Shown here: positions 18,595 to 62,615 of the stretch, one piece after another
Layout: each line of letters starts with the position of its first letter
How positions within the stretch are numbered: position 1 is the first letter of the stretch
DNA from: a virus
Lineage: Duplodnaviria > Heunggongvirae > Uroviricota > Caudoviricetes
Reading direction: 5' to 3' (one strand)
Virus record (IMG/VR): IMGVR_UViG_3300032294_002926
Length of the DNA stretch: 64,000 nucleotides
The notes under the pieces: model-generated
What the model saw: only the letters and a program-made list of their open reading frames with translations
Database searches by the model: none
What the model was told of the DNA's origin: nothing
Translations under genes and position numbers: made by a program

Positions 18595-18984
18595 ATGGGA
18601 ATTCAAGACATTCAACTTAGTCAGAAAGATGCGTATCTTTCTAATCCAAATTTAAAAAGAGCAAATACTCAGATCGAATGGTCTGAGGATAAGATCATCG
18701 AATTTTTAAAATGTAAAGATGATCCTGTTTATTTTGCAAAAAATCACCTCAAAATTGTGTCTTTGGATCATGGTTTAGTTCCTTTTAACTTATATCCTTT
18801 TCAGGAAAAGTTGATTCAGAACTTTCATAGGCATAGATTTAATATCTGTAAAATGCCCCGTCAGACTGGGAAATGTTTTAATAAAGATACAATAGTGAGA
18901 ATAAAAAATAAAAACACTGGTATAATACTGGAACTTACAATTGAAGAACTTTATGAAAAACTCAAGGAAGAAAACAGTAATTGA
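18595..18984 (+). CDS. gp17: terminase large subunit fragment 1 (to Walker A RQTGK) + IntN
   Basis: YLSNPNLKRAN..KCKDDPVYFA..KMPRQTGK followed by CFNKDTIVRI and a stop. Confidence 0.92.
   Translation: MGIQDIQLSQKDAYLSNPNLKRANTQIEWSEDKIIEFLKCKDDPVYFAKNHLKIVSLDHGLVPFNLYPFQEKLIQNFHRHRFNICKMPRQTGKCFNKDTIVRIKNKNTGIILELTIEELYEKLKEENSN
18874..18981 (+). mobile_element. split intein TerL-1, N-fragment (36 aa, Cys1)
   Basis: Block A C-F-N-K-D-T-I-V directly after the Walker A Lys; ELTIEELYE helix; ends at a stop. Confidence 0.9.
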
Positions 18985-19984
18985 ATGTATTGAATGTGGA
19001 GAAGTAATTCTTGGGGGTTCCCACATGTCAAGGCATGTTCAGAAAAAACATGGTTATAATTCTTATGATGAGTATAAAATAACTCATAAATTAATAAAAA
19101 CAAAAGAAACTCTTATTGATCAAGGTGCAGTATGTTGCAAAATTTGTGAACTAGTTTCACATGATTTGACATCCCATATAATAAGAACTCATAAAATAAG
19201 CGTAAATACTTACAAAAATCTTTATGGTGGTGAAATAAGAAGCACTAAATATCGCTCAGAACAATCTGAAAGAATTAAAGGTAACAAAAATCCTGCATAT
19301 AATCATGAAGGAAAGTACTCGCCATTTTCTGAAAAATTTATCTATGCTGATACTATAGATAAAAAAGAACTTTGTCAAAAAGTAAGTGAATCAAATAAAA
19401 ATAATGGAAATAATTCAACTACAGTAAAATATTGGTTAAAACGTGGTTATAGTTTAGAAGAATCTATTAAACAAATTTCTATAAGACAAACTACATTTAG
19501 TTTAAATCATTGTATTCAAAAATATGGTGAAGAAAATGGGAGAAAAAGGTGGTTAAAACGACAAGAAAAATGGATTGAAAGTCACAAAAAAAGTAGAAAG
19601 AATAAATTTTCAAAAATCTCCCAAGAGATGTTTTGGGAGATATATAATATTATAAAATTAGATAAGAATTTTATATTTTTTGCAGAACTTGATTCCGATA
19701 AAAAAATGGATCTTAGTGGAATAAATCACGAATACAAATTAAATCTTCCAGAAAGAATTCTTTTGCCGGATTTTATTAATATAAAAACTAAAAAAATAAT
19801 AGAATTTGATGGAACCTATTGGCATAATGAATATATTATAAAAAGTACAAATAGATTAAGGGATTTTGAACGAGATCAAATATTGATGTCAAACGGATTT
19901 AAAGTATTACATATAAAAGAAGAGAAATACAGAAAAGATAAAGAAAATATAATAAAAGAATGTTTGGAGTTTTTAAATGGCTAA
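18953..19984 (+). mobile_element. free-standing homing endonuclease (Zn-finger + Vsr/PD-(D/E)XK-like)
   Basis: CxxC..H..H fingers, YWLKRG repeat, LPDF..IIEFDGTYWH..RD nuclease motif; sits between the intein halves and overlaps both. Confidence 0.8.
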
Positions 19985-20321
19985 AATCATTGAAGAATTT
20001 AAAAATAATGAATGGGAAATAGAAACTCCATCTGGTTGGCAGTCATTTTCTGGTGTCGGTAAAACCATAGAATATGATGAATTTGAAATTCTCACAGAGA
20101 ATGGAAAAAAATTATATTGTGCTGATAAACATATTTTAATAGATGAATTTTGGGGTCAAATATTCTGTGATGAATTATTCACAGGAAGCAAAATTCAAAC
20201 AAAAGATGGAATAGAGAAAATAAAAACAATTAAGAAAACATCTAATATTTGCAATATGTATGATATCCTAGATGTTGAAAATGGAAATATTTTTTATAGC
20301 AATGATATTGTATCACATAAT
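19977..20321 (+). mobile_element. split intein TerL-1, C-fragment (115 aa, ends SHN, Ser+1)
   Basis: Block B CADKH, block F MYDI, block G IVSHN/S. Confidence 0.9.
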
Positions 20322-22259
20322 TCCTCCACAACTGTTGCTTATTTACTACATTACGCTCTATTCAATGATAGTGTAAATATTGCAATTCTTGCAAATAAAG
20401 CGACAACTGCCAGAGATCTTCTACAAAGACTCCAACTTGCATACGAAAATCTTCCGAAATGGATGCAACAGGGAGTTCTTCAGTGGAACAGAGGAAGTTT
20501 AGAACTAGAGAATGGATCTAAAATTATGGCCGCTTCCACATCAGCATCAGCAGTGCGTGGTGGATCTTATAATATCATATTCTTGGATGAGTTTGCATTT
20601 ATTCCAAATCATATTGCAGATGATTTCTTCGCTTCAGTTTATCCAACAATCTCATCTGGTAAAACAACTAAAGTTATCATAGTTTCTTGTGTCACAGACG
20701 ATACTTTTGTTCTTACTCCAAAAGGAATCTATGAAATGTCAGATTTTATAGATTATAATCAAGAAGAGAATCCAGTCAAAGGATATGAAGTCATTGATTA
20801 TCAGGTTTATGGACATGGAGGAATAAAAAACGGAAATATTTTAGTAAATAGTGGATATCATGACACTAAAGTCATATATTCACAATCATCTTTTGTTGAA
20901 TGTTCTTTAAGACATCCATGGTTTGTTTGTGATAATGGTATCTATGATTGGAAAAAAACTTCAGAATTAAACGGAAATGAGTATATTGCAGTTGAATATG
21001 GACATGATGTTTGGGGTAATGATAATCAAATAGAAGAAATAGAAATAACTCCAGATTTTGCGTATTTTCTTGGACTTTATATCTCAAAGGGATCTTCAAT
21101 TTACGAAATTAATGATGAAAATGAAATCAAATATAGAGGAATCGCAATAATTTGTAATGAAAACATTAGATCTACATTAAGGTCATTAAATTTAAATTAT
21201 AATTATGTTAATAACATAAATTATATAATTTCATCACCATCTCTTTGTGAGATTATGATAAATCTTGGATTTAATTTATCGGATAAATCTAAACAAAAAG
21301 AAATCCCCAAAAGACTTTTTAGAATGTCTAGAGAAAATATAATTTCTTTAATTCAAGGTATTATGGATGGTAATGGAACAGCTCAAAAAAGTAATGGAAT
21401 TGTTTCAATTACTTCAAAGTCACAGAAACTCATTAAACAAATTAGATTTTTATTAAACAATTTTGGAATATTGAGTAGTTATTATAAAATAGCAATAGAA
21501 AAGTCTCCAGAAGTAAAAGTCCATTCTTACAAATATAAAATTGAATTAAGTGGTGAAATGTCAAATTCCTATTACAATCTTATAGGATTTAAGTTTCAGA
21601 GAAAACAATTTAATGAAAAATATTTGATAAAAAATAATACAAAAAACAGTCATGATGTAGTTCCTTATAGTAAAAATGTTATTTTTTCTTTAAAAAATAC
21701 GCATCCAGAAGATTATAATAAAATCGTTAAATCAAAAATTTTAATAGGACATTATAAAAAAACTCCTCATTTTAGTAGAAAATTTTTATTGAAACATAAG
21801 AAGTTCTTTTTAAGTTTAAATAATGAAGTAATTAATCAATTATACAATTTTGTAGATGAGAGTATTAAATGGGAAAAAATTGATAAAATTCAAGATTCTA
21901 AAAATAAAGTATATGATTTCTCTTTAAAAGAAACAGGTGATAAATGGTGCCATAGTGTATTATTTAATAATATTTTAGGATCTAACACGCCACGAGGTAT
22001 GAATCATTTTTATCGTATGTGGCATGATGCAGAGAGAGGTAAAAATGGTTATGTTCCCACTGATGTTCATTGGTCAGAAGTTCCTGGAAGAGATGAAAAA
22101 TGGAAAGCAGAAACTATTGCGAACACTTCGGCAGAACAATTTCGAATCGAGTTTGAAAGTGTTCAGCATGACACATTAATAAATGTAGAAATGGATGGAG
22201 TATTACAAAAAATTTCAATAGGCGATTTATATAAGAACTTATACAATAAAAGTTGTTAA
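19977..22259 (+). CDS. gp17: terminase large subunit fragment 2: IntC - ATPase core (with cis intein) - IntN
   Basis: VSHN|SSTTVAYLLH, LDEFAF Walker B, VIIVS|C...SN|TPRGMNHFY, QFRIEFE|SVQHDT. Confidence 0.92.
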   Translation: MAKIIEEFKNNEWEIETPSGWQSFSGVGKTIEYDEFEILTENGKKLYCADKHILIDEFWGQIFCDELFTGSKIQTKDGIEKIKTIKKTSNICNMYDILDVENGNIFYSNDIVSHNSSTTVAYLLHYALFNDSVNIAILANKATTARDLLQRLQLAYENLPKWMQQGVLQWNRGSLELENGSKIMAASTSASAVRGGSYNIIFLDEFAFIPNHIADDFFASVYPTISSGKTTKVIIVSCVTDDTFVLTPKGIYEMSDFIDYNQEENPVKGYEVIDYQVYGHGGIKNGNILVNSGYHDTKVIYSQSSFVECSLRHPWFVCDNGIYDWKKTSELNGNEYIAVEYGHDVWGNDNQIEEIEITPDFAYFLGLYISKGSSIYEINDENEIKYRGIAIICNENIRSTLRSLNLNYNYVNNINYIISSPSLCEIMINLGFNLSDKSKQKEIPKRLFRMSRENIISLIQGIMDGNGTAQKSNGIVSITSKSQKLIKQIRFLLNNFGILSSYYKIAIEKSPEVKVHSYKYKIELSGEMSNSYYNLIGFKFQRKQFNEKYLIKNNTKNSHDVVPYSKNVIFSLKNTHPEDYNKIVKSKILIGHYKKTPHFSRKFLLKHKKFFLSLNNEVINQLYNFVDESIKWEKIDKIQDSKNKVYDFSLKETGDKWCHSVLFNNILGSNTPRGMNHFYRMWHDAERGKNGYVPTDVHWSEVPGRDEKWKAETIANTSAEQFRIEFESVQHDTLINVEMDGVLQKISIGDLYKNLYNKSC
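20688..21986 (+). mobile_element. contiguous intein TerL-2 (433 aa) with degenerate LAGLIDADG domain
   Basis: CVTDDTFV start, SLRHP block B, VYDF block F, ends LGSN/T; removing it restores VIIVSTPRG. Confidence 0.9.
22158..22256 (+). mobile_element. split intein TerL-3, N-fragment (33 aa, Ser1)
   Basis: SVQHDTLINV..ISIGDLYK after EFE; stop at 22257. Confidence 0.85.
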
Positions 22260-22268
22260 AAATTTAAA

Positions 22269-22613
22269 ATGAATTTACCATCAACAGTAATTAAAAATAA
22301 TTCAAATATTAAAATAGAAACTCCATATGGATTTGAGAATTTTTATGGAGTGAATAAAATAGAGAAAGATAGTTATATTCATCTATATTTCACAAATGGT
22401 GAAGAACTTAAATGTTCATTAGATCATCCTTTATCCACAATCGAAGGTATTATAAAAGCAAAAGATTTAGATAAGTACACTGAAGTTTATACAAAAAATG
22501 GTGGATGTTTTTTAAAAAAATCAAAAGTCATTAATAAACCAATTGAACTTTATGACATTGTAAACTCTGGAATCAAACATTTATATTACACAAATAATAT
22601 AATATCTCATAAT
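22269..22613 (+). mobile_element. split intein TerL-3, C-fragment (115 aa, ends SHN, Cys+1)
   Basis: Block B CSLDHP, block F LYDI, block G IISHN/C. Confidence 0.9.
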
Positions 22614-23531
22614 TGCGAATTCTTAGGGTCAATGAATACCCTAATAAATGCAGCAAAATTAAAGAACTTTGTATATGATGATCCGATACAAAGAAATGCC
22701 GGTTTAGATGTTTATGAAGATCCAAAAGAAGATAATAATTATTTAATTACTGTTGATGTTGCGCGTGGTCTCGGAAATGATTATTCTGCATTTATTGTAT
22801 TCGATATCACAAATTTTCCATATAAAGTCATAGCAAAATATAAGAACAATGAAATTAAACCAATGCTGTTTCCCAGTATTATACATGAAGTTGCAAAAGG
22901 ATACAATAATTCATGGGTACTAATTGAAGTTAATGACATTGGGGATCAAGTAGCAAATATTCTACATTTTGATTTGGAATATGACAATATTCTCATGTGT
23001 GCAATGAAAGGTCGAGCAGGTCAAATTGTTGGATCTGGATTTAGTGGTAAAAGATCTCAATTAGGTGTGAGAATGACATCTTCTGTTAAAAAGTTGGGAT
23101 GTTCAAATCTTAAAACACTAATGGAAGATGATAAATTAATTACAAACGATTATGATATCATTTCAGAATTAACAACATTCATTCAAAAACATAATTCATT
23201 TGAAGCAGAAGAAGGAACTAATGATGATCTGGCCATGTGTTTGGTCATTTTCTCTTGGTTGGTTGCACAGGATTATTTCAAAGAAATGACTGATAATGAT
23301 GTAAGAAAAAGAATATATGAGGAACAAAAAAATCAAATAGAACAAGATATGTCACCATTTGGATTTATTTTAGATGGAATAGATGATTCTGAAATATTTG
23401 TAGAAAAAGCAACCGGAGATACGTGGATGAATGCAAATAAAAAAGACCCTAATCAATTATTAGAAGTATGGAATTTAGATGAATATGGTGATGTATCAAA
23501 TGAATGGAATTATATGTGGGATTATAATTAG
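22269..23531 (+). CDS. gp17: terminase large subunit fragment 3: IntC + nuclease domain
   Basis: IISHN|CEFLGS; TVDVARGLGNDYSAF; NDDLAMCLV nuclease motifs. Confidence 0.92.
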   Translation: MNLPSTVIKNNSNIKIETPYGFENFYGVNKIEKDSYIHLYFTNGEELKCSLDHPLSTIEGIIKAKDLDKYTEVYTKNGGCFLKKSKVINKPIELYDIVNSGIKHLYYTNNIISHNCEFLGSMNTLINAAKLKNFVYDDPIQRNAGLDVYEDPKEDNNYLITVDVARGLGNDYSAFIVFDITNFPYKVIAKYKNNEIKPMLFPSIIHEVAKGYNNSWVLIEVNDIGDQVANILHFDLEYDNILMCAMKGRAGQIVGSGFSGKRSQLGVRMTSSVKKLGCSNLKTLMEDDKLITNDYDIISELTTFIQKHNSFEAEEGTNDDLAMCLVIFSWLVAQDYFKEMTDNDVRKRIYEEQKNQIEQDMSPFGFILDGIDDSEIFVEKATGDTWMNANKKDPNQLLEVWNLDEYGDVSNEWNYMWDYN

Positions 23532-23548
23532 TTACAACATACAAAAAT

Positions 23549-26381: not shown

Positions 26382-29321
26382 ATGGCAAAACTTTTTGGGT
26401 TTTCTATTGAGGATAATGAAAAAAAATCCAAATCAATAGTCTCCCCCGTTCCTCAGACAGATGAGGACGGGGTTGATTATTTTGTACAATCAGGATTTTA
26501 CGGACAGTATGTTGATATTGAAGGTGTTTATAGAACTGAATTTGATTTACTACGTAGATACAGAGAAATGGCGTTACACCCTGAGTGTGACTCAGCCATA
26601 GAAGATGTCGTAAATGAAGCAATAGTAAGTGACTTATACGATTCTCCAGTAGAAATTGAATTATCTAATTTAAATGCAAGTGATAAATTAAAATCTATTA
26701 TTAGAGAAGAATTTAAAATCATCAAAGAGATGATGGATTTTGATAGAAAATGTCATGAAATTTTTAGAAATTGGTATGTGGATGGGAGAGTTTATTATCT
26801 AAAAGTCATTGATGTAAAAAATCCTCATGAAGGAATCAAAGAATTGAGATACATTGACCCCATGAAGATGAAACATGTGCGTCAAGAAGTACCACAAAAA
26901 CAGAAGAATAACAGAAAAAACACAATTAATAGATTAAATCTAAACAATAATTTCACAAATACAGAAGTAGTAAGCACAGATATTGAAGAATATTTCATAT
27001 ATTCACCTATGCCGAATTATCCTTTATCATCTTTAAGTAGTGCAGCAAAGGGTAGTATTAAAATTTCTAAAGATGCGATTACTTATTGTACCTCGGGTCT
27101 TGTTGATAGAAATAAAGGAACAATACTTTCATATCTTCATAAAGCAATTAAAGCACTCAATCAACTTCGAATGATTGAAGATTCTCTTGTAATTTACAGA
27201 TTATGTTTAGTTGGAAATACAAGAGTAAAAACTAAAAATGGATATTCTTATATTAAAAATATAAAACCTGGAGATATTGTTTATAGTTATGATAATAGAG
27301 TAAATCATTTGTTAGAAACTAAGGTTTCTAACAAATGGATGACAGGTATTAAACAAACATTTAAAGTCACATCAAAACATCACAATATTATTGGAACTGA
27401 TACTCATCCAATTCTTGTTTATGATACTGTAACTAAAGATGTAAAGTATGTGCCAATTAAAGAATTGGAACCTAAAAGACATTGCTTGACTTATATTAAA
27501 CCGAATGAAACTAATATTCTCACATCTTTCCCAAAAATTAGAGAAAAAGCATTTTCCATTAAAAGTAATTCTTTTTGGTCTTCTTATAATATTAAAGGAA
27601 AGGAAAATATAATTAAAGAAATTTCTAAATCAACAAAAATAAAAAAACATAGAATTCGTAATTTTCTTTATGGTAATCAATCATTAGAGGATGCAAGCGT
27701 ACAACTTTTAGAGGAAAAACTTCCACTTTTAAAAAATACAGAATATGAAGAAAAATATGAAGGTTTATGTAGAAATAAATTAGATCTCCCAAATTATATT
27801 GACGAAGAATTTTCTAGATTATTTGGATTTCTTTTGGGTGATGGATCCATTGGAAAGTATGGAGTATCATTTGCGGAAGGTGAAGATGAAATTCAAAACA
27901 TTTACTATTCAAAATTAATGAAAAAGTTTTTTGGAAATTGTAAAAGAATAAATTCAAAAAGAAAATATAGTAATTATTCTTCATCGAATACACTTGCTTC
28001 AGAATTATTATCAAAGTTGGGATTCGTAAATGGGTCAAAGAAAAAAAGGATTCCATCATGGTTATTCACATCTTCAGACTCGATTAAAAAAGAATTTATT
28101 TTAGGTCTTTTAGATGCAGATGGTCATTACAGAGATTTAGTAAATGGATTTTCTTGTGAGATATCACTGGCAAATAAAGAACTCATTGAAGATATTAAAG
28201 AAATTTGGACTTCAATTGGACTCTGCTCTGGTCATATCCGACATAGAATTAGACCATCAAAAACTAGAATAGTTGGATATGAGACCACACCAAGAATAAT
28301 GCCAGAATCTGAATCTTGGGATTTATATTTAAGTGAATATGAACTACCCAAATTTGAAAAAATTCAAAAAATTGAAATTGATCAAATTGAAGAAGTTTAT
28401 GACATTGAAGTTGAACACGAAAAACATAATTTTGTTGCTAATGGAATTATAGTTCACAATTCAAGAGCTCCTGAACGTCGTATTTTTTATATTGATGTTG
28501 GAAATCTCCCTAAAGTAAAAGCAGAACAATATCTTAAGGAGGTTATGAGTCGTTATAGAAATAAACTTGTTTATGATGCCTCAACAGGTGAAGTAAGAGA
28601 TGATAGGAAGTTTATGAGTATGTTAGAAGATTTTTGGTTACCTCGTCGAGAAGGTGGTAGAGGAACAGAAATCACTACTTTACCTGGTGGTCAAAATCTC
28701 GGAGAACTTTCAGACATTGAATATTTTCAAAAGAAACTTTATAGATCATTAGGTGTACCGGAATCAAGAATTGCTGGGGGTGGTGATGGATTTAATTTAG
28801 GAAGATCTTCAGAAATTTTAAGAGATGAACTCAAGTTTTCAAAATTTGTAGGACGCCTCAGAAAACGTTTCGCAAGAATGTTCAATGACATTCTTCGCAC
28901 ACAATTACTATTAAAAAACATAGTATCAGTCGAAGATTGGAAACAAATGGAGGATCATATTCAATATGATTTTCTTTATGATAATCATTTTGCGGAACTT
29001 AAAGAGGCAGAATTAATACAGAATAGAATAGGTTTAATGACTCAGATAGAACCATATATTGGAAAATATTATTCTACAGAATATATCCGTAAAAAGATTT
29101 TGCGACAGACTGATTCAGAAATTGTTGAATTGGATCTACAAATTGAAGATGAAATTTCAAAAGGAATATTACCAGATCCAAATCAACCTACAGATGAGAT
29201 GGGAAATCCTATTCCAACAGAAAATCCATCTGAACAACCTGCTTTAGGAGAAATTCCTACAGAAGAACCTGCACCAGAAGCACCAAAAATTATCGCAGAA
29301 CCTAAAGGTGGTAAAATATAA
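26382..29321 (+). CDS. gp20: portal protein with contiguous intein
   Basis: LRRYREMALHPECDSAIEDVVNEAI; LVIYRL|...|SRAPERRIFYIDVG; EDFWLPRREGGRGTEITTLPGG. Confidence 0.95.
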   Translation: MAKLFGFSIEDNEKKSKSIVSPVPQTDEDGVDYFVQSGFYGQYVDIEGVYRTEFDLLRRYREMALHPECDSAIEDVVNEAIVSDLYDSPVEIELSNLNASDKLKSIIREEFKIIKEMMDFDRKCHEIFRNWYVDGRVYYLKVIDVKNPHEGIKELRYIDPMKMKHVRQEVPQKQKNNRKNTINRLNLNNNFTNTEVVSTDIEEYFIYSPMPNYPLSSLSSAAKGSIKISKDAITYCTSGLVDRNKGTILSYLHKAIKALNQLRMIEDSLVIYRLCLVGNTRVKTKNGYSYIKNIKPGDIVYSYDNRVNHLLETKVSNKWMTGIKQTFKVTSKHHNIIGTDTHPILVYDTVTKDVKYVPIKELEPKRHCLTYIKPNETNILTSFPKIREKAFSIKSNSFWSSYNIKGKENIIKEISKSTKIKKHRIRNFLYGNQSLEDASVQLLEEKLPLLKNTEYEEKYEGLCRNKLDLPNYIDEEFSRLFGFLLGDGSIGKYGVSFAEGEDEIQNIYYSKLMKKFFGNCKRINSKRKYSNYSSSNTLASELLSKLGFVNGSKKKRIPSWLFTSSDSIKKEFILGLLDADGHYRDLVNGFSCEISLANKELIEDIKEIWTSIGLCSGHIRHRIRPSKTRIVGYETTPRIMPESESWDLYLSEYELPKFEKIQKIEIDQIEEVYDIEVEHEKHNFVANGIIVHNSRAPERRIFYIDVGNLPKVKAEQYLKEVMSRYRNKLVYDASTGEVRDDRKFMSMLEDFWLPRREGGRGTEITTLPGGQNLGELSDIEYFQKKLYRSLGVPESRIAGGGDGFNLGRSSEILRDELKFSKFVGRLRKRFARMFNDILRTQLLLKNIVSVEDWKQMEDHIQYDFLYDNHFAELKEAELIQNRIGLMTQIEPYIGKYYSTEYIRKKILRQTDSEIVELDLQIEDEISKGILPDPNQPTDEMGNPIPTENPSEQPALGEIPTEEPAPEAPKIIAEPKGGKI
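27204..28460 (+). mobile_element. contiguous LAGLIDADG intein in portal (419 aa)
   Basis: CLVGNT start, GTDTHP block B, FGFLLGDG and ILGLLDADG motifs, VYDIEV..VHN/S end. Confidence 0.92.
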
Positions 29322-47678: not shown

Positions 47679-48572
47679 ATGACTAATTTGACTTCTGTTC
47701 TTGATGAAACCTCTATCAAAGAACTTATCACTTACTATGGCACTAAAATTACATCTTCTGATATTAAAGGTTATTGTGCCTCTCGCAGTTTGAGTTATCA
47801 GACTATTACTAAAAAACTAGAACCTTTTAAAACCTCTCGTGGATGTTGGAATCTTGAAGTGACTCCAGAACAAATTGAAAGTCTTGAAAAATCATACAAT
47901 GCACCAACGGAAGTTTTGGATTCAATTAAAATCTTGGATGCAGAACAAGATAATCTGATACCTCGTAAAGATCCAAACTTTGTTGCCTTTGGAAATTTTT
48001 CAGATATTAAGAAAGTTATTAAATCTAATTTGTTTTATCCAACTTTCATTACAGGTCTTTCTGGAAATGGTAAAACATTTAGTGTCGAACAGGCATGTGC
48101 TCAGTTGAAACGTGAAATAATTCGAGTCAATATTACAATTGAAACCGATGCCGATGATCTTTTGGGTGGATTTCGAATGATTGCAGGTGAAACTGTTTGG
48201 TCTAATGGACCTGTGGTAGAAGCGATGCAACGTGGTGCGATTCTTCTATTGGATGAATGTCTTGATGAAAATCAAGAAGTTCTTGTAGGGACAGTTGATA
48301 ATTATGTTTCAATGAAACTTTCTGATATGGAATTTAATAAACAATATCCAGTGGTTAGTTTCAATATGAAAACTGGTGAATTGGAGAATGACTCTGGTTT
48401 CATTATTTCCGATAAGGATGATGATATCTACGAAGTTGAACTTGAGGATGGTCGCACAATTAGACTTAATTCAAAACATCCATTCATTGTGCATAATGAA
48501 GATGGTACATTTTCAGAAAAAACAATTTCTGATGGTCTTAGTATTGGACAGAATGTAGTATCTTTCACTTAA
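47679..48572 (+). CDS. cobS: CobS/MoxR-like AAA ATPase, N-half + IntN
   Basis: GLSGNGKT Walker A; ETDADDLLGG; AILLLDE then CLDENQEVLV. Confidence 0.88.
   Translation: MTNLTSVLDETSIKELITYYGTKITSSDIKGYCASRSLSYQTITKKLEPFKTSRGCWNLEVTPEQIESLEKSYNAPTEVLDSIKILDAEQDNLIPRKDPNFVAFGNFSDIKKVIKSNLFYPTFITGLSGNGKTFSVEQACAQLKREIIRVNITIETDADDLLGGFRMIAGETVWSNGPVVEAMQRGAILLLDECLDENQEVLVGTVDNYVSMKLSDMEFNKQYPVVSFNMKTGELENDSGFIISDKDDDIYEVELEDGRTIRLNSKHPFIVHNEDGTFSEKTISDGLSIGQNVVSFT
48258..48569 (+). mobile_element. split intein CobS, N-fragment (104 aa, acidic)
   Basis: Block A CLDENQEV; VVSFN..TGELE; block B LNSKHPF; stop at 48570. Confidence 0.9.
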
Positions 48573-48639: not shown

Positions 48640-50076
48640 ATGGAATTCACATTTATAAAAACTTCTAAAACTTTTACAAACTTTAAGTCCTTTTTAAATC
48701 ATGTAAGATGTTACTCTAAAAAACATAATATTGATCTTAATTTTTTATTGAAAGAAAATTATGATCACTATTGTCCAATAAAAAACAAAATATGTAAACA
48801 TTGTTATTCTGAATGTCCATATAACGGTTATTATAAAGGTTACGAAAATCCTTGCTTCTCTTCAGAGTGTTATAAAAAATTCGTCTCATATAATAGAGAT
48901 TATTATTCCAATAAAATTAATTCAGGGTATTATGATCTTTATGATGATAAAAAATATAAATGTTTTTTCAGTAAAAGATATTTTGATATTACTAATGAGA
49001 AAATAACTACAAATAACATTTTTTTTGTGGATAAAAAATGCGTTATATGTAATTCTTTAATGTCAAATATATCATTATTTTCAAGAGATGTTAATAATCA
49101 AACTTGTTCTAATAAATGTAAACATAAAATAATATCTTCAAAAACAAGAAAAAGATGTTTATACAATTTAGAAGAAAATATATTCAAAAGCGATAATGAG
49201 TTAAATCATTATATCTTTAAGAATAAAAAATACCCTTTTAATGATAAGTATGAGATGAATAATACTTTGATTGAAAAATTTAAAAATAAACCTGAATTTC
49301 AAATACCACCAAAAAAAAGTATTGTATATTTTTCTAAAAAATATAATTTATATTTTTTTAATTTAAAAGGATCTAAGATAAGGAGTAGTCTCTATAGATA
49401 TCTGGGTAGTGATTCTGAATATTTAAATTATCATATTGAAAATAATTTAGGTAAAACTGAATGCCCTGGATGCAAAAAGAAAATTTTATTTCAAGACGTT
49501 TTTGGTAAAAAATATATTGATACTAAATATTGTTCATCTTCTTGTTATTGGGATTCGTCTGTCGGGAGAGTTATACCCGAAAATGTAAGAAAAAAGCATT
49601 CTGAATCAATGAAAAAAATTATTTTTGATGGTAAGTATACACCTACTATCACAAATAGTTGGTGTAAATCAAAAACAAAGGTTATAATTAATGGAAAAGA
49701 TGAATTTGTTAGATCCTCTTGGGAAGCTGTTTTTTGGGCACTTAATCAAGATCTTATGTATGAAGTTGTTAGAATAAAATATGTCGATATCAATAAAAAA
49801 CAAAGAAATTATATTGTTGATTTTTATTCAAAAGAAAGAAAATGTTTATATGAAATAAAACCTAAAAGTGAGAAACAGAAACCAAATAACATATTAAAAG
49901 AAAAATATGCTTTAAAATACTGTAAAGAAATGAACATGAGTTATGTTATTATTGATGAGAATTATTTTATTGAAAAAATTAAAGAAGTGGATTGGAATAA
50001 TATGAACCAATTTATTTCCGAAGAAACTATTGTAAAATTTAAAAAAGGAATCGGACCATTTCAAAAACTGTCATAA
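48640..50076 (+). mobile_element. free-standing endonuclease (CxxC repeats + TnsA-like PD-(D/E)XK domain)
   Basis: Several CxxC/CSxxC motifs; RSSWE..YE..IKY..RNYIVDFY..LYEIKP; sits between the intein halves. Confidence 0.78.
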
Positions 50077-50137: not shown

Positions 50138-50260
50138 ATGAAAAATTTTAAAACATCTGAAATTAAGTCAATTCGTTTTGTTGGTAAAGGTCGTGTTCGT
50201 AATCTTACTGTAAATAAGAATCATACATTCCTTACTGCTAATGGAATTGTGACTCATAAT
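50138..50260 (+). mobile_element. split intein CobS, C-fragment (41 aa, basic, Cys+1)
   Basis: IKSIRFVG..NLTVNKNHTFLTANGIVTHN/C. Confidence 0.9.
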
Positions 50261-50836
50261 TGCGATCTAGCGAGTAATAAGATTTTGTGCCTTCAATCGG
50301 TTTTAGAAGGGAAAGGTGTTTATCTGAAAAAAATTAATAAATTTATTCAACATTCTGATGGATTCAATATTTTTGCCACAGCAAACACGAAAGGTAAAGG
50401 TTCTGAGGACGGTAGATTTATTGGTACAAACGTCCTGAACGAAGCTTTTCTTGAGCGTTTCTCCATTACTCTGGAGCAACAATATCCTTCGATTACAATT
50501 GAACAAAAAATTCTAGAAAAATTTATTCCTGAAGATTCTAGAGATGAAGCATTGATCTTCTCTCAAAGACTTGTCGATTGGGCCGACATTATCAGAAAGA
50601 CATTTTATGATGGTGGAATTGACGAGATTATTAGTACCCGTCGTCTAGTTCATATAATGAAGGCATATTCTATTTTTGGGAATAAAGAAAAAGCGATCAA
50701 AATTTGTATTAATCGCTTTGATCAGGAAACAAAAGAATCATTTTTGACTCTCTATGATAAAATAGATGCTGATTTTAATCTCTCAAGTGATCAAACGCCC
50801 GAACTCGAAAATCCAACTCCTGATCTTCCATTTTAA
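50138..50836 (+). CDS. cobS: IntC + CobS/MoxR-like AAA ATPase, C-half
   Basis: IVTHN|CDLASNKILCLQ; ATANTKGKG; NEAFLERF; ISTRRLV. Confidence 0.88.
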   Translation: MKNFKTSEIKSIRFVGKGRVRNLTVNKNHTFLTANGIVTHNCDLASNKILCLQSVLEGKGVYLKKINKFIQHSDGFNIFATANTKGKGSEDGRFIGTNVLNEAFLERFSITLEQQYPSITIEQKILEKFIPEDSRDEALIFSQRLVDWADIIRKTFYDGGIDEIISTRRLVHIMKAYSIFGNKEKAIKICINRFDQETKESFLTLYDKIDADFNLSSDQTPELENPTPDLPF

Positions 50837-56836: not shown

Positions 56837-56843
56837 ATTTAAA

Positions 56844-57290: not shown

Positions 57291-57315
57291 ATTAAATAGT
57301 GGTACTTTAAATCAT

Positions 57316-57358
57316 AGAGAAGGATTCACTGAAAATCAGTTGACTCCTTCTCTTTTTT
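57316..57358 (+). terminator. rho-independent terminator after hsp20
   Basis: AGAGAAGGA..TCCTTCTCT stem followed by Ts. Confidence 0.85.
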
Positions 57359-57368
57359 ATGATATACT
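57340..57368 (+). promoter_or_regulatory. sigma70-type promoter overlapping the terminator
   Basis: TTGACT-17 nt-TATACT with TG extension. Confidence 0.75.
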
Positions 57369-57390
57369 ACAACTGTAGTGAGGGATAAAA

Positions 57391-57723
57391 ATGTCAATTA
57401 AACTTGCAAAACTAAAATCAGGTGAAATTATTATCTCTGATATAAAAGAAATATTTTCTGAAGACAGCACTTGTGCATATTTATTTAAAAATCCACAATT
57501 AATTGAAATAAAAAGATCAATTCTTCTGACAGAAGAATTTAATGATTCAAAATCAAATATAGAAGTCTCAATGACGCCATGGATTATCTTAACGAGTGAT
57601 GATAAAATTCAAGTCACACTGGATTCTGTCGTTGCTATAGTAAATCCAATTCAAACCATAAAAGAAATGTATGAGGAGAAAATGAATGACAAAGACAGTA
57701 AAGTGCCTGTTACTGAAAGTTGA
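57391..57723 (+). CDS. conserved hypothetical (Sm-like) protein
   Basis: IKLAKLKSGEIIISDIKE..PWI; usual position upstream of gp43. Confidence 0.7.
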   Translation: MSIKLAKLKSGEIIISDIKEIFSEDSTCAYLFKNPQLIEIKRSILLTEEFNDSKSNIEVSMTPWIILTSDDKIQVTLDSVVAIVNPIQTIKEMYEEKMNDKDSKVPVTES

Positions 57724-57949
57724 TAATGTAATTATTACAGAAATTCAAGAAATTGATGCGGAATTAGGTGATCCAAATTGTAAATTAATTAAACCCTATC
57801 AAATAGATGAGAATGCACATCTATCTCCATGGCCAGATGAAGAGTTGACAGAACAAAAAGAAATGATGATTCACTCTGATAGCATCTTGACTATTGTAGA
57901 CCCCAAACCTGAAATCATTGAAAAGTATTTAGAGTTGACTAAAACATGA
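57686..57949 (+). CDS. conserved hypothetical protein
   Basis: ELGDPNCKLIKPY..LSPWP; overlaps its neighbours. Confidence 0.7.
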   Translation: MTKTVKCLLLKVDNVIITEIQEIDAELGDPNCKLIKPYQIDENAHLSPWPDEELTEQKEMMIHSDSILTIVDPKPEIIEKYLELTKT

Positions 57950-59985
57950 AATTTTATACGAATATAAAAACAATTGGTGATTATATTTTCTACAGAGGTT
58001 ATCAAGATAAAATAGAAATTAAAGACAAAATTAAATATCAACCAACTTTTTTTATTCGTTCTAAAATTAACACAGAATATAAAAACTTGAATGGAGATTA
58101 TCTTGCTCCAATTCAACCTGGAACAATTTCAGAAAGTAAAAGTTTCATTCAAAAGTATAAAGACGTTGAAGGATTTGAGTATTTTGGTAATGAAAATCCA
58201 ATTTATCAATTTATTTCTGAAAATTTCTCAGGTTCAATTGAATATGATATTTCTCAGGTTAAACTGTATATTTTGGATATTGAAACAACCGCAGAAAATG
58301 GTGCAATAAATGCACAAGAAGCGAATGAAGAGATTCTTCTTATTACAATTCAAGATTTTAATAAAAATATTTCTTATACTTGGGGTAGTAGACCATTCAC
58401 AGAAAAAATAGATAACCATGTTTATTATGAATGTGAAAATGAAGTAAAACTTTTACAGAAATTTTTAACATTCTGGGAAAATAATTATCCTGATATTTTG
58501 ACTGGATGGAATTGTATAAATTTTGACATTCCTTATATTATTAATAGAATTTCTAAAAACTTTGGTGAAAATGAAGCAAAAAGACTTTCTGTCTGGAAAA
58601 AAATTTCATGTAGAGAGTTTGTTATTCAAGATAGAGTTGAATATGAATATGATTTATATGGAATTACCACATTAGATTATTTACAATTATTTAAAAAATT
58701 TGCTTTTATTAGTACTGAGAATAATAGATTAGATACAGTAGCAAAAGAAGTTCTAAATGAACAAAAACTAAATCACGATGAATATGATACTTTTAAAGAT
58801 TTTTACACAAATAATTTTGATTTATTTGTAAAGTATAATGTTCAAGATTGTAACCTAATCAGTAGATTTGAAAGAAAATTGAGTCTTATACAACTCGCTT
58901 TTACTCTTGCTTATCAGGCAAAGGTTAACATTCAAGATGTATTCTATCAAGGTAGAATGTGGGATGGTATAATTTATAATTATTTAATTCAAGATAAAAT
59001 TGTAATTCCCTCTAAAAAGAAGACAGGCGAAAAGAAAGAAAAATTTAAAGGGGCACATGTAAAAGAACCTCAGATAGGAAAATTTAAATATGTCTGTAGT
59101 TTTGACCTCGCATCACTGTATCCTTCGTTAATTCGTACTTATAATATAAGTCCGGAGACACTAGTTAAAGATAGAAATATTGAGGTTTCAATTAATTCTA
59201 TTATAGATAATAAATTTGAAAATAAATATCCAGACTATACGATTTGTTCGAATGGGTCCATGTACACCAAAAAAGTGCAAGGATTTCTTCCCAAAATTAT
59301 GGAAAAGATGTTTAATGAAAGAACTGTCTATAAAAAGAAAATGCTTGCGGCACAATCTTTATATGAGACAAATCCATCTCAAAAATTAGAAGAGGAAATT
59401 TCTACATACAAAAACTATCAACATGCACTTAAAATTTGCCTCAACTCTGCTTTTGGTTCTTTAGGTAACGAATATTTTAGATTTTATGATATTCGAAATG
59501 CTGAAGCAATTACTTACTCAGGTCAAACTGTGATTAAATGGATTGAAAAAGATCTTAATTCTTACTTGAATACTGTTTCTGGTACTAAAGATGAAGATTT
59601 AGTCATAGCAATGGATACAGATAGCGTTCTGGGGGGTAGTGTCATTAAAGTAAATAATATAAATATGACAATCTCTGATTTTTATGAGATGATTGATTTT
59701 AATTATTTAAAATATGATGAATTTAATCAAAAATATGTAAAAAAAGTTTCTGAATATATTACACCATCTTTATCTTTTGATAAAAAAATCCAAAATAAAA
59801 GTATTAAATATGTCATGAAACATAAAGTTAAGAAAAGATTATATGAAATTAAAGTAAATGGAAAATCTGTTAAAGTTACAGAAGATCATTCAATTATAGT
59901 TAAAAATAAGAAAACAAATGAAATATATCCAGTGAAACCTCAAGATTTATCACCACAGGATCATTATGTAATTTACATCAAATAA
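57946..59985 (+). CDS. gp43: family B DNA polymerase, N-part + IntN
   Basis: LDIET exonuclease; SFDLASLYPS motif A; KICLNSAFG motif B; AMDTD then SVLGGS. Confidence 0.93.
   Translation: MKFYTNIKTIGDYIFYRGYQDKIEIKDKIKYQPTFFIRSKINTEYKNLNGDYLAPIQPGTISESKSFIQKYKDVEGFEYFGNENPIYQFISENFSGSIEYDISQVKLYILDIETTAENGAINAQEANEEILLITIQDFNKNISYTWGSRPFTEKIDNHVYYECENEVKLLQKFLTFWENNYPDILTGWNCINFDIPYIINRISKNFGENEAKRLSVWKKISCREFVIQDRVEYEYDLYGITTLDYLQLFKKFAFISTENNRLDTVAKEVLNEQKLNHDEYDTFKDFYTNNFDLFVKYNVQDCNLISRFERKLSLIQLAFTLAYQAKVNIQDVFYQGRMWDGIIYNYLIQDKIVIPSKKKTGEKKEKFKGAHVKEPQIGKFKYVCSFDLASLYPSLIRTYNISPETLVKDRNIEVSINSIIDNKFENKYPDYTICSNGSMYTKKVQGFLPKIMEKMFNERTVYKKKMLAAQSLYETNPSQKLEEEISTYKNYQHALKICLNSAFGSLGNEYFRFYDIRNAEAITYSGQTVIKWIEKDLNSYLNTVSGTKDEDLVIAMDTDSVLGGSVIKVNNINMTISDFYEMIDFNYLKYDEFNQKYVKKVSEYITPSLSFDKKIQNKSIKYVMKHKVKKRLYEIKVNGKSVKVTEDHSIIVKNKKTNEIYPVKPQDLSPQDHYVIYIK
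59623..59982 (+). mobile_element. split intein gp43, N-fragment (120 aa, Ser1, basic, no Cys)
   Basis: SVLGGSVI..TISDFY; YVMKHKVKKRLY; block B VTEDHS. Confidence 0.9.
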
Positions 59986-60025
59986 TAATGAGAATGTATA
60001 AAAATACTATTAACGGAGAACTTAA

Positions 60026-60148
60026 ATGAATCTTATATATGATGATACTTTTGAAGTAAATGATTTAGGTGAGCAAGAAGAATGGGTGTATGATATTGAA
60101 GTTGAAGATAACCATAATTTTTTTGCTAATGATATATGTGTTCATAAT
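60026..60148 (+). mobile_element. split intein gp43, C-fragment (41 aa, acidic, Ser+1)
   Basis: VYDIEVEDNHNFFANDICVHN/S. Confidence 0.92.
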
Positions 60149-60964
60149 AGTTGCTTTTTAAATTTTGAACCAATTGTAAACAAAGTATTTAAGGACAAGA
60201 GTGTATCAGAAGAAAAAATCATTCACTTTTTAATTAAAGTCTGTGATGATGCAATGCAAACTTTTATTGATAAATCTTTTAATAAATTATGTGACATTAC
60301 AAATGCATATGAAAATTGTCTTCATATGAAAAGAGAAAAAATATGTTCATCTGCTCTCTGGCGAAGTAAAAAAAATTATATTCTTAATGTATGGGACAAT
60401 GAAGGTGTTTTTTATTCAGAACCAAAAATAAAGATGTCTGGCATCGAAGCAGTAAAAACATCAACGCCATCATATTGTAGAACCGCAATTAGAGATGTAA
60501 TAAAAATTATTATGAACGGTGAACAAGATGAATTAATTGATTTTGTAAATTCTATTAAAAAAGAATTTAAGACTCTCTCCCCAGATCAAATTGCTTTTCC
60601 TAGAGGAGTAACTGATTTACGAAAGTTTTATTCACCAAACGATATCTATGTAAAAGGTACTCCTATACATGTGAGAGGTTCCCTTCTTTATAATTATCAC
60701 ATAGAAAAAAATAATTTGGAAAATAAGTATTCTTTGATAAGAAGTGGGGAAAAAATTAAATATATTTACTTAAAAAAACCAAATACAATAGGAGAAAATG
60801 TTATTTCTTTTATTCAAAAATTTCCAAAAGAACTTAATCTTGACAAATACATAGATTATGATCTACAATTTGAAAAGTCTTTTTTGGAACCAATTAAAAG
60901 TTTAGTTGAAATAATTGGATGGAAAACTGAAAAAGTTGTGGACTTAGAATCATTTTTTATTTAA
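60026..60964 (+). CDS. gp43: IntC + DNA polymerase C-part
   Basis: CVHN|SCFLNF; LHMKRE; KKNYILNV; KMSGIEAVKTSTP; GTPIHVRG. Confidence 0.93.
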   Translation: MNLIYDDTFEVNDLGEQEEWVYDIEVEDNHNFFANDICVHNSCFLNFEPIVNKVFKDKSVSEEKIIHFLIKVCDDAMQTFIDKSFNKLCDITNAYENCLHMKREKICSSALWRSKKNYILNVWDNEGVFYSEPKIKMSGIEAVKTSTPSYCRTAIRDVIKIIMNGEQDELIDFVNSIKKEFKTLSPDQIAFPRGVTDLRKFYSPNDIYVKGTPIHVRGSLLYNYHIEKNNLENKYSLIRSGEKIKYIYLKKPNTIGENVISFIQKFPKELNLDKYIDYDLQFEKSFLEPIKSLVEIIGWKTEKVVDLESFFI

Positions 60965-60974
60965 AGAGGATACA

Positions 60975-61241
60975 ATGAATTTTCTGGAAGATATAATCCA
61001 AGAAATTGGATGTGAGTACGCACAAATCGCAACAGATTTAAAAGAGGGTGAGAATTATGTAGATACTGGGTCTTATATTTTTAATGCACTTGTTTCGGGT
61101 AGTATATTTGGTGGATTTAGTAGTAATAAAATTACTACAATTTCTGGAGCAAGCAGCACAGGAAAGTGTGCCAGAGGGTCGGAAAAAATTATTATCTACT
61201 GTGATGAAGAAACTGCTGATAAAATAAAAAAGATGATTTAA
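60975..61241 (+). CDS. uvsX: RecA-like recombinase N-part + IntN
   Basis: VDTGSYIFNALVSGSIFGG..SGASSTGK then CARGSE. Confidence 0.9.
   Translation: MNFLEDIIQEIGCEYAQIATDLKEGENYVDTGSYIFNALVSGSIFGGFSSNKITTISGASSTGKCARGSEKIIIYCDEETADKIKKMI
61167..61238 (+). mobile_element. split intein UvsX, N-fragment (24 aa, Cys1)
   Basis: CARGSEKIII block A after the Walker A Lys; stop at 61239. Confidence 0.85.
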
Positions 61242-61248
61242 TTTTTTA

Positions 61249-61280
61249 TTGACAGTTACCCTTATAGATAATTATAGATT
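61249..61280 (+). promoter_or_regulatory. possible sigma70 promoter inside the uvsX split
   Basis: Perfect TTGACA at 61249; only imperfect -10 candidates (TATAGA at 18 nt). Confidence 0.4.
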
Positions 61281-61293
61281 TTATTTAAATATC

Positions 61294-61401
61294 ATGGTTA
61301 GAAATCATAGTAATAATCCTAGAATGCCAATATATTGGGAACTTCGTGGATTTTTTCCTGAAGATTCAAAAATTAGAGCAAAAACTGAGTTTAGAAAATG
61401 A
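61294..61401 (+). pseudogene. 35-codon remnant of a homing endonuclease
   Basis: MVRNHSNNPRMPIYWELRGFFPEDSKIRAK resembles KYWLKRGYSLEESIK in the 18953 endonuclease. Confidence 0.5.
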
Positions 61402-61412
61402 GGTAAAACAAA

Positions 61413-61805
61413 ATGGTTGAACTTGAACTTACATATGAACAACTTTATAAAATTTATGGCAATGGGAAACATGAAGAACCTTGTGAAGTTACTGATGAAA
61501 TTTATGTAAAAACTCCTACTGGAATAACTAGAATAAATGAAGTTGTAACAAAACATAACAATGAAGTCATTCGTTTGGATTTTCATGATGGTGATAGATT
61601 TGAATGTTCTGTAAATCACATCTTTCATGATTATAATTCAGGTACCGAAGTAAATGCACTCGATGCTAAAGATATTACATCTACTTACGGTAAAAAAACA
61701 GTAGTTGAAAGAACACCTATTGGATTTGAAAATGTATATGACATTTCTATAGAATATCCTCACTGGTATATTGCAAATTCAAAATCAGGTATCTACCATC
61801 ATAAT
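61413..61805 (+). mobile_element. split intein UvsX, C-fragment (131 aa, Thr+1)
   Basis: Block B CSVNH, block F VYDIS, ends YHHN/T. Confidence 0.88.
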
Positions 61806-62615
61806 ACTTTTTTCGCTTTAGCTGTAATTAAAAATTTCTTGGATCAAAATCCAGAAGGATATTGTTTATATTTTGATACTGAAGCAGCGATTACAAAATC
61901 ATTACTTCAAAGCAGAGGATTGGATATAAGTAGAGTAGTTGTTTTAAATGTTCTGACTATTGAAGAATTCAGAACAAAGGCTTTAAAAGCAGTGGATCTC
62001 TACATGAAAAAACCTGTCAAAGAAAGAAGACCTTGTTTTTTTGTTCTTGATAGTTTAGGAATGCTCTCTTCAAACAAAGAAATTGGAGACGCCTTGGCAG
62101 AAAAAGATACAAGAGATATGACAAAGGCATCTTTGATTAAAGGTGCTTTTAGAATGCTCACTCTTAAGTTGGGACAGGCAAATATTCCAATGATAGTTAC
62201 AAATCACGTTTATGCTAATGTTGGGGGGTATGGCGCTTCTACAGTTCAAAGTGGAGGTTCTGGAGTACTTTATTCATCTTCTACAATCATCGAGTTGTCC
62301 AAATCAAAAGAGAAAGACGGTAAAGAAACGATTGGAGTTATAATCAAAGCAAAAACATTTAAATCAAGATTGAGTAAAGAAAATCAAGAAGTTGAAATTC
62401 GTCTATATTATGATGAAAGAGGTCTAGATCGTTATTATGGTTTACTAGAACTTGGTGAAACTGGTGAATTATGGAAAAGTGTTTCTAATAGATATGAGTT
62501 CCAAGGCAAAAAAATGTTTGCAAAAGAAATTCTGAGAAATCCTGAGCAATATTTTACTCAAGATGTAATGGAAAAATTAGATCAAATTGCAAAAGAACAA
62601 TTTAGTTATGGATGA
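61413..62615 (+). CDS. uvsX: IntC + RecA-like recombinase C-part
   Basis: IYHHN|TFFAL; YFDTEAA; VLDSLGML; IVTNHVY; QSGGSG. Confidence 0.92.
   Translation: MVELELTYEQLYKIYGNGKHEEPCEVTDEIYVKTPTGITRINEVVTKHNNEVIRLDFHDGDRFECSVNHIFHDYNSGTEVNALDAKDITSTYGKKTVVERTPIGFENVYDISIEYPHWYIANSKSGIYHHNTFFALAVIKNFLDQNPEGYCLYFDTEAAITKSLLQSRGLDISRVVVLNVLTIEEFRTKALKAVDLYMKKPVKERRPCFFVLDSLGMLSSNKEIGDALAEKDTRDMTKASLIKGAFRMLTLKLGQANIPMIVTNHVYANVGGYGASTVQSGGSGVLYSSSTIIELSKSKEKDGKETIGVIIKAKTFKSRLSKENQEVEIRLYYDERGLDRYYGLLELGETGELWKSVSNRYEFQGKKMFAKEILRNPEQYFTQDVMEKLDQIAKEQFSYG

Follow-up and report, generated by a model that had tools for sequence, protein, structure and literature searches.

Fractured genes, as described by Dassa et al. 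in 2009 (PMC2677866), encode a host protein in two open reading frames (ORFs) that carry the N- and C-terminal halves of a split intein (IntN and IntC) at their ends, with a free-standing endonuclease gene, Vsr-like or of another kind, on the same strand between the halves. Among their hosts are gp41, NrdA and a terminase of gp17 type whose IntC is unusually long, and the same study raised the question of how a gene survives fracture. The DNA analysed here (hereafter the window, 64,000 nucleotides (nt) of IMG/VR record IMGVR_UViG_3300032294_002926) comes from an uncultured T4-like cyanophage and carries five naturally split inteins, two in the terminase TerL (gp17) and one each in a CobS-type ATPase, the DNA polymerase gp43 and UvsX, together with two contiguous (cis) inteins, one in TerL and one in the portal protein gp20. 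The described terminase with the long IntC has the arrangement of our TerL-1, the first of the three TerL inteins, and the described gp41-7 locus lacks an endonuclease gene, as do TerL-3 (the last of the three) and gp43 here. By contrast, the loci of 2009 were single ones on short metagenome reads, whereas five, or six with gp41, lie here on one genome; TerL alone holds two split inteins and a cis intein; CobS and UvsX fall outside the eight host types of that study; and the endonuclease of the CobS locus is TnsA-like, not Vsr-like or GIY-YIG. We consider it very probable that these elements, whose anatomy, junctions, conservation and family links are described below, form a set of inteins predicted to splice and to pair with fidelity in the same phage.

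Anatomy and conservation of the seven inteins

The window has the content of a T4-like myophage, with about 30% G+C and several cyanophage auxiliary genes (CobS, peptide deformylase, Hsp20 and 2-oxoglutarate (2OG)-Fe(II) oxygenase). Its closest cultured relative is Synechococcus phage S-SRM01 (240.8 kilobases (kb); record MW015081.1, L206 among the related loci and contigs, mostly from IMG/VR, that we compared and designate by L-numbers), which shares gene order with the window and is 77.5% identical to it in the portal exteins and 82–94% in the TerL exteins; a megablast search of the TerL region against GenBank phages returned a single 131-nt match only. The TerL and portal genes of S-SRM01, checked directly, are both intein-free. 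Its whole genome gives zero Pfam intein matches, a negative that is weak alone because the Intein_splicing model fails to detect atypical IntC halves.

Translations and Pfam matches place all seven inteins where a preliminary description of the window, made from its sequence alone, had put them; that list holds, and its count is too low, since gp41, whose gene runs off the window end, is fractured as well, and an NrdA intein lies further on. The insertions interrupt TerL in its Walker A motif and at two further sites, the portal protein, CobS in Walker B, the polymerase in motif C and UvsX in Walker A. The observation that each junction restores a conserved motif is borne out by intein-free relatives, in which the exteins are contiguous with zero gap at all seven sites. 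Residues 1 and +1 are C/S in TerL-1, C/T in TerL-2, S/C in TerL-3, C/S in gp20, C/C in CobS, S/S in gp43 and C/T in UvsX, a point to add to the earlier account being that the IntN halves of gp43 and TerL-3 begin with Ser and not Cys. The block B His and the C-terminal Asn are present in all seven, and the penultimate residue is His in six of them and Ser in the TerL cis intein. Judged by these residues, all seven are class 1 inteins with intact catalytic residues, and splicing itself is predicted. The split halves are separate ORFs with their own stops and ATG starts, separated by spacers of 9–1565 nt, and the split arrangements are kept in relatives (L001, L082–L085 and L161–L194). Relatives at 57–80% identity also retain the catalytic residues of the split inteins, at position 1, in block B (His), at the C-terminus (Asn) and at +1.

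TerL is encoded by three ORFs (A, 18595-18984; B, 19977-22259; C, 22269-23531) made up of the following segments, with lengths in amino acids (aa):

18595..18873, + strand: TerL N-extein 1, 93 aa, ending at Walker A in ..RQTGK (translation)
18874..18981, + strand: TerL-1 IntN, 36 aa, Cys1, an atypical short half of S2 type (translation)
18953..19984, + strand: free-standing gene for a Vsr-like (DUF559) homing endonuclease, between IntN and IntC of TerL-1 (Pfam DUF559, 3e-8)
19977..20321, + strand: TerL-1 IntC, 115 aa, ending in ..VSHN with Ser at +1 (SSTT) (phmmer, CatC 6dsl, 3.8e-8)
20322..20687, + strand: TerL extein 2a, 122 aa, Terminase_6N ATPase (Pfam; 94% identical to S-SRM01)
20688..21986, + strand: TerL-2 cis intein, 433 aa, VIIVS/Cys1...GSN/Thr+1 (TPRG), with LAGLIDADG domain (Pfam Intein_splicing and LAGLIDADG_3)
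21987..22157, + strand: TerL extein 2b, 57 aa, ending in ..EFE (colinear with intein-free relatives)
22158..22256, + strand: TerL-3 IntN, 33 aa, Ser1, of GOS-TerL type (translation)
22269..22613, + strand: TerL-3 IntC, 115 aa, ending in ..ISHN with Cys at +1 (CEFL) (phmmer, CatC 6dsl, 1.7e-17)
22614..23531, + strand: TerL C-extein 3, 305 aa, Terminase_6C nuclease (Pfam)

The Vsr-like gene overlaps both the IntN tail of fragment A and the IntC start of fragment B; an independent contig has it annotated as a DUF559 gene of 319 aa. Fragment C begins 9 nt after fragment B ends. Among the 74 IMG/VR loci that have all four extein pieces, these are joined with zero gap at all three sites in 66 and carry an insertion at one or more sites in 8; the TerL of S-SRM01 is likewise contiguous at all three. 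By site, length and similarity, TerL-3 is assigned as an allele of the GOS-TerL/AceL-TerL family (S2 position), all of whose characters (25–37 aa in IntN, 104–115 aa in IntC, the TerL ..E/CEFL site and sequence similarity) it displays, and TerL-1, which has the lengths and the similarity but a different site, inside Walker A, as a paralogue of TerL-3. The TerL-1 IntC also matches VidaL (6vgv) and gp41-1 in phmmer searches and has relatives in 317 sequenced phage records, including those of Campylobacter phages CP21 and CP220. The same three-intein layout, with the same Ser1/Cys+1 pair, recurs in L001, whose exteins, split-intein IntC halves and endonuclease are 57–75% identical in aa sequence to those of the window (a 59% identical endonuclease copy occupies the same TerL-1 position), the short IntN halves and the cis intein being more diverged. 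Even so, the L001 homologue of the TerL-1 IntN keeps Cys1 and the ..IGELY.. helix, and the Ser1 of TerL-3 is also kept. We rejected the combination of Ser1 and Cys+1 in TerL-3 as a sign of decay, since it is documented GOS-TerL chemistry and is kept in L001. Inteins at the TerL-2 site are also found in both L001 and L002. The first LAGLIDADG motif of the window's TerL-2 (..LGLYISKGS..) lacks the usual acidic residue, and its endonuclease may therefore be inactive.

The CobS locus has an endonuclease gene between its halves, as follows:

47679..48257, + strand: N-extein of the CobS-type AAA_5 ATPase, 193 aa, ending at Walker B in ..LLLDE (Pfam AAA_5)
48258..48569, + strand: CobS IntN, 104 aa, Cys1, net charge -13 (Pfam Intein_splicing)
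48640..50076, + strand: free-standing endonuclease gene between the CobS halves, 478 aa (Pfam Tn7_TnsA-like_N, 1e-7; phrog_15427 'endonuclease')
50138..50260, + strand: CobS IntC, 41 aa, ending in ..VTHN with Cys at +1 (CDL), net charge +7 (translation)
50261..50836, + strand: CobS C-extein, 191 aa, CbbQ_C (Pfam)

The TnsA-like nuclease domain sits at the C-terminus of this endonuclease. In L195–L199 the CobS exteins are contiguous with zero gap, and the intein is, from its sequence, a canonical (S0) split. Relatives of its IntN form 55 protein clusters, most of them on AAA_5 (CobS-type) proteins and others on gp44 clamp-loader ATPases, and occur in one of 50,697 sequenced phage records; this intein type is thus common in metagenomes and nearly absent from sequenced phages. 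Our literature search for a phage CobS intein returned nothing relevant, which does not show that such an intein is unreported. As a separate observation, the relatives in gp44-type clamp-loader AAA+ ATPases (P0017, P0023, P0024, P0045 and P0049–P0053) are 46–62% identical to the CobS IntN, which suggests one intein lineage in equivalent Walker B sites of different AAA+ hosts.

The gp43 intein is split by a short spacer only:

57946..59622, + strand: gp43 N-extein, 559 aa, ending at motif C in ..DTD (Pfam DNA_pol_B)
59623..59982, + strand: gp43 IntN, 120 aa, Ser1, net charge +9, with Lys-His motif (phmmer, Aes123 PolB1 9hth, 3.6e-18)
60026..60148, + strand: gp43 IntC, 41 aa, ending in ..CVHN with Ser at +1, net charge -12 (Pfam Intein_splicing, 3e-6)
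60149..60964, + strand: gp43 C-extein, 271 aa (Pfam)

The halves are 40 nt apart with no endonuclease gene, and the exteins are contiguous with zero gap in the L085 gp43 gene, which is intein-free. Inteins related to this one occupy the same site in 34 IMG/VR loci, many of them with an ORF of 352–355 aa between the halves. Upstream of block B, ..MKHKVKK.. of the window aligns with ..MKHTVKK.. of 9hth; a His preceded by Lys or Arg (the 'NX' motif) has been described for Ser1 inteins (PMC10189870). By these alignments the gp43 intein belongs to the Aes123 PolB1 cysteine-independent split family, with a canonical S0 split.

UvsX combines an ultra-short IntN with a long IntC:

60975..61166, + strand: UvsX N-extein, 64 aa, ending at Walker A in ..STGK (contiguous with the C-extein in relatives)
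61167..61238, + strand: UvsX IntN, 24 aa, Cys1, ultra-short, S1 type (alignment; complex model)
61242..61412, + strand: spacer, 171 nt, containing what is left of the 5' end of a lost homing-endonuclease gene (89 nt at 72% nt identity with the beginning of the L083 endonuclease ORF)
61413..61805, + strand: UvsX IntC, 131 aa, block B ..CSVNH.., ending in ..YHHN with Thr at +1 (alignment and profile search)
61806..62615, + strand: UvsX C-extein, 269 aa, RecA fold (Pfam RecA)

The UvsX exteins are contiguous in 74 of 80 related loci (e.g. L087, 2527/2528) and split in the other six, namely L081, which represents the window's own phage at 99.3% identity, and five more IMG/VR loci. Among relatives, the first 11 IntN residues are almost invariant and are followed by a 13-residue tail, and the IntC starts with a ..LTYEQLY.. 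helix that aligns with the Pab PolC intein from residue 19 onward. A profile of six IntC homologues matches intein structures only (best 7.5e-4), and phmmer with the IntC gave no VidaL match at E<=1. Among the defined split-intein positions, S1 is that of VidaL and PolB16 (PMC13014065), and alignment puts the UvsX break there, after strand 2 (the first hairpin); the intein is accordingly VidaL-like in its predicted layout, sequence kinship to VidaL not being supported. The complex model of its IntN with its IntC reached a score of 0.83, whereas none of three controls exceeded 0.00, with runs agreeing in at least 86% of contacts and a partner pLDDT (predicted local distance difference test) of at least 66; the mark that it passed is reached by 58 of 80 solved complexes and by 2 of 110 mismatched pairs. 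The model lends support to a predicted binding of this copy, though the pass may reflect likeness to solved split-intein complexes. A literature search for a UvsX intein of VidaL type gave nothing relevant. In another relative (L085:2732-4282) the match to the UvsX C-extein covers 150 aa and then breaks off, and some 1 kb further on there is a piece resembling a canonical IntC. This pattern suggests a second intein in its UvsX; the 10-kb contig has three Pfam intein matches.

The portal intein is contiguous:

27204..28460, + strand: gp20 cis intein, 419 aa, YRL/Cys1...VHN/Ser+1 (SRAP) (Pfam Intein_splicing, 1.3e-13, and LAGLIDADG_3)

Its two LAGLIDADG motifs are both intact, Pfam Portal_T4 matches gp20 in two stretches, and the gp20 extein (979 minus 419, or 560 aa) compares with 563 aa for the intein-free portal protein of S-SRM01.

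The metagenome-assembly source of the window raises the question of an artefact, a chimera of strains or a set of erroneous stops, and close strains do differ, L081 lacking the gp41 intein and having an endonuclease gene at UvsX. We judge this origin of the multi-intein state to be extremely unlikely. Identical proteins in the same ORF order turn up in assemblies of several individual runs, drawn from two studies: six independent per-run assemblies have the exact 297-aa CobS-N protein in its three-ORF layout, and a contig of another study has the exact TerL-B protein together with the genes beside it. Independent contigs of 25–31 kb from other runs carry the CobS C-terminal piece, both gp43 pieces, both UvsX pieces and the fractured gp41 together, and L209 is 100% identical to the window over 7.2 kb (56777-64000), with L207 and L208 at 99.5%. 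The splits moreover bring new start codons, spacers and inserted genes rather than single-base stops. Because independent assemblies carry the same ORF layout, assembly errors as the source of the stops, which the preliminary description had named as grounds for dropping its proposal, are ruled out. The single contigs also link the CobS-C, gp43 and UvsX pieces physically, the 64-kb window adding TerL, so that the fragments are made in the same infected cell, as had been proposed.

Inteins beyond the window and endonuclease turnover

Overlapping contigs extend the view to about 20 kb past the window end, where the first element is the following:

63171..64000 (running past the window end), + strand: start of the N fragment of gp41 helicase (gene table of L209, common to L207 and L208)

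The fractured gp41 (L207:13146-16282) consists of a 352-aa extein with an 89-aa IntN, two overlapping ORFs, and a 39-aa IntC with a 107-aa extein; the IntC ends in ..ANDILTHN/S, and the C fragment starts at a GTG behind GGAGG. By its sequence this is a sixth split intein, gp41-1-like and with a canonical split. The two ORFs between the halves (213 and 238 aa), which overlap and end in a Vsr-like motif, are probably one frameshifted Vsr-like endonuclease gene. About 10 kb past the window end, NrdA of L213 (a 235,951-nt scaffold) has a contiguous mini-intein of about 153 aa (HINT domain) after ..NSC. In a 99.5% identical sister strain (L211, L214 and L215), a 1.09-kb insertion with a 366-aa ORF cuts this intein into a 16-aa IntN and a 135-aa IntC; comparison of the two alleles (L213:7255-9990 and L214:6149-9990) appears to catch an ultra-short split intein in the act of arising. 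The intein load thus reaches at least six split and three contiguous inteins in this phage and at least seven split ones in the sister strain. Among related loci, by contrast, any one split occurs in a minority, as the TerL (8 of 74) and UvsX (6 of 80) counts show. Pfam searches with the ORFs lying between the UvsX (in L081), gp41 and NrdA halves gave no match.

The layout of these loci is that of fractured genes, which probably arises when the gene of a free-standing homing endonuclease inserts into that of an intein. On the same strand, TerL-1 (DUF559/Vsr-like) and CobS (TnsA-like) have an endonuclease gene between their halves. The spacer remnant of UvsX (about 90 nt) resembles the 5' end of an endonuclease ORF in L083 and also in L082, and in L081 (L081:1-630; 99.3% identical downstream) a full ORF occupies the spacer position; the gp41 of L081 is an intact, intein-free protein of 459 aa. 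The loci stand at different stages: TerL-1 and CobS still have the endonuclease gene, UvsX keeps a remnant of it, and TerL-3 and gp43 have lost it. They display how an endonuclease invades, decays and disappears, after which the intein stays split for good.

Predicted pairing of the intein halves

The mature proteins would be restored by protein trans-splicing: IntN and IntC would make up a joint HINT domain, a (thio)ester formed by Cys1 or Ser1 would come under attack from the +1 Cys, Ser or Thr, and the terminal Asn would cyclise. TerL would then be assembled from three polypeptides by two trans-splicing events and one cis-splicing event, and CobS, gp43 and UvsX from two polypeptides each.

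Mutual orthogonality of the pairs is plausible from sequence. Pairwise identity among the five split inteins is 19–32%, and they use three split positions, S0 (CobS and gp43), S2 after helix 1 (both TerL inteins) and S1 after strand 2 (UvsX), so that most non-cognate combinations of N and C halves would lack or duplicate the middle of the fold. Complementary charges of split-intein halves have been described (PMC2677866). Within the S0 class the net charges are reversed, CobS having -13 in IntN and +7 in IntC, and gp43 +9 and -12, and non-cognate halves therefore carry like charges. Fidelity of this kind is most likely in large part a by-product of descent from different old intein families rather than of selection in this phage. 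TerL-1 and TerL-3 (identity 21% in IntN and 34% in IntC) would be the critical pair, the only same-topology paralogues within one protein. Fragment B, ordered IntC–extein–IntN, has the permuted layout used for protein cyclisation, and mispairing would either ligate A directly to C, leaving B out, or produce a cyclic B. Since the middle fragment would be skipped or cyclised, these two inteins would have to have been kept apart by selection, and persistence of the double TerL arrangement in the diverged L001 argues that they were.

Several points weigh against this account. In the TerL cis intein, Ser takes the place of His next to the terminal Asn. Together with the first LAGLIDADG motif of this intein, which is without an acidic residue, and with the functioning intein-less fractured genes of phage Aeh1 (NrdA) and phage 25 (gp43) (PMC2677866), this would fit a situation in which some fractured genes are decaying or work unligated, their intein halves being inactive or mere dimerisation modules. 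We regard that as very unlikely: all five split inteins, and their relatives, retain the nucleophiles at positions 1 and +1, the His of block B and the terminal Asn; the breaks interrupt P-loops, Walker B and polymerase motif C, sites at which a chain left unligated and burdened with some 150 additional residues would hardly be active; and the close family members GOS-TerL, Aes123 PolB1 and gp41-1 splice in vitro. As the phage is uncultured, its viability with this exact genome is assumed from recurrence in several samples.

The other points concern pairing. Atypical splits with a short IntN are the class in which cross-reaction has been seen (PMC7090010), and the GOS-TerL IntN is exchangeable with that of AceL-TerL (PMC11766414). 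The IntN halves of TerL-1 and TerL-3 share an ..I(G/E)(E/D)LY.. helix and a net charge of -1 each, which leaves their fidelity without a visible explanation in the sequence. In addition, gp41 raises the S0 pairs to three and is nearly neutral (-4/-2) and 31–41% identical to the other two, so that charge reversal cannot explain all fidelity. The pairs may accordingly be incompletely orthogonal, chiefly the TerL paralogues or the short-IntN pairs, with the loss tolerated or limited by timing and local assembly: the replication genes are early and TerL late, co-translational or local assembly would replace intrinsic specificity, and the 9 nt from the end of TerL-B to the start of TerL-C mean that cognate halves are made side by side. 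This alternative seems to us rather unlikely, though much less so than decay. The identity between TerL-1 and TerL-3 is far below that of the near-allelic GOS/AceL pair, both of which contributed to the Cat consensus, the double arrangement has lasted in L001, and a dead packaging motor would make mispairing costly.

A stronger proposition, that true mutual orthogonality holds among at least six split pairs expressed together and that sister strains about 99.5% identical capture steps of split-intein evolution, is one that we put forward tentatively, as a possibility that falls somewhat short of an even chance. The captured steps would be the NrdA mini-intein contiguous or in pieces of 16 and 135 aa, the UvsX endonuclease present or deleted, and the gp41 intein present or absent. 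If the proposition is true, the determinants of TerL paralogue specificity can be read by comparison with the diverged homologue, and a mini-intein broken at a non-canonical site can be viable from the outset.

Split inteins are workhorses of protein engineering, and sets without cross-reaction are scarce. This genome offers five to seven coexisting pairs, among them a cysteine-independent one, two short-IntN TerL pairs and the ultra-short UvsX pair, in which natural specificity rules may be sought, above all for short-IntN inteins that associate without obvious charge steering. It also provides a demanding natural case, an essential packaging motor that would depend on two trans-splicing reactions and one cis-splicing reaction, and the differences between strains (endonuclease present, decayed or deleted; mini-intein contiguous or split) bear on the origin of split inteins. 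The idea of a ready-made toolkit keeps part of its value, tempered by the fact that each intein type is already known and that existing engineered families (GOS-/AceL-TerL/Cat, Aes123 PolB1/CL/CLm and VidaL-type) include, or resemble, three of the five pairs.

Neighbouring genes and described relatives

A further homing-endonuclease gene of the window is the following:

33493-34995, - strand: free-standing HNH homing-endonuclease gene, 500 aa (phrog_3339, 9e-95; helix-turn-helix (HTH) domains)

This gene sits between the major capsid gene and a tail-tube-like gene, on the opposite strand, and S-SRM01 has just a 171-nt ORF at that position. Between the clamp-loader genes gp44 and gp62 (54113-55826) there are two ORFs, one of 204 aa with no family and one of 373 aa matching phrog_19197, with a weak DruA-like Pfam match. 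In the S-SRM01 record (L206:5399-9360), 'tail sheath protein' is the label of the 573-aa gene colinear with TerL and 'terminase large subunit' that of the gene after it, which looks like an exchange of the two names.

Among described inteins, TerL-3 is closest to GOS-TerL, AceL-TerL and Cat (6dsl), with which it shares the ..EFE/CEFL site and the Ser1/Cys+1 pair; its halves have 33 and 115 aa, compared with 37 and 115 in GOS-TerL (PMC11766414). TerL-1 differs from them in its Walker A site, its Cys1/Ser+1 pair and its resident endonuclease gene, and the presence of two such inteins in one protein is a case for which the characterised examples were not studied. The gp43 intein resembles those of Aes123 PolB1 (9hth), CP21 PolB1 and LCGC14 PolB2 (PMC12707363, PMC11923092) in its T4-like PolB host, Ser1/Ser+1 pair, IntN of about 120 aa and Lys-His motif. 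It differs from Aes123 PolB1 in sequence (about 45% identity, estimated by eye) and in one non-catalytic Cys in its IntC, and from the family in having a 40-nt spacer and no endonuclease gene between its halves. The UvsX intein is like VidaL (6vgv) and PolB16 OarG (PMC10189870, PMC13014065) in being split after the first hairpin, with a short IntN, a long IntC and, as in VidaL, Cys1; its IntN exceeds their 15–16 aa owing to the 13-residue tail, and its IntC has no significant match to VidaL. The gp41 intein shares with gp41-1 (6qaz) the canonical 89/39-aa split and the ..ANDILTHN/S end of IntC, and differs in that the endonuclease gene between its halves is in two overlapping ORFs.

The T4-like Campylobacter phages CP21 and CP220, which are cultured, carry an atypical TerL intein 38% identical to TerL-1, and CP21 also has a split PolB1 intein (PMC12707363), so that cultured phages with more than one such intein exist. 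By the matches found here they have two such elements, compared with six or more in our phage, and the CobS and UvsX splits were not found in them. Each element of our phage can thus be placed in an established category (class 1 inteins, natural split inteins, fractured genes), and what is notable about it is the number of these elements in one genome, a motor needing three splicing events, a CobS host with a TnsA-like endonuclease and the strain-level snapshots.

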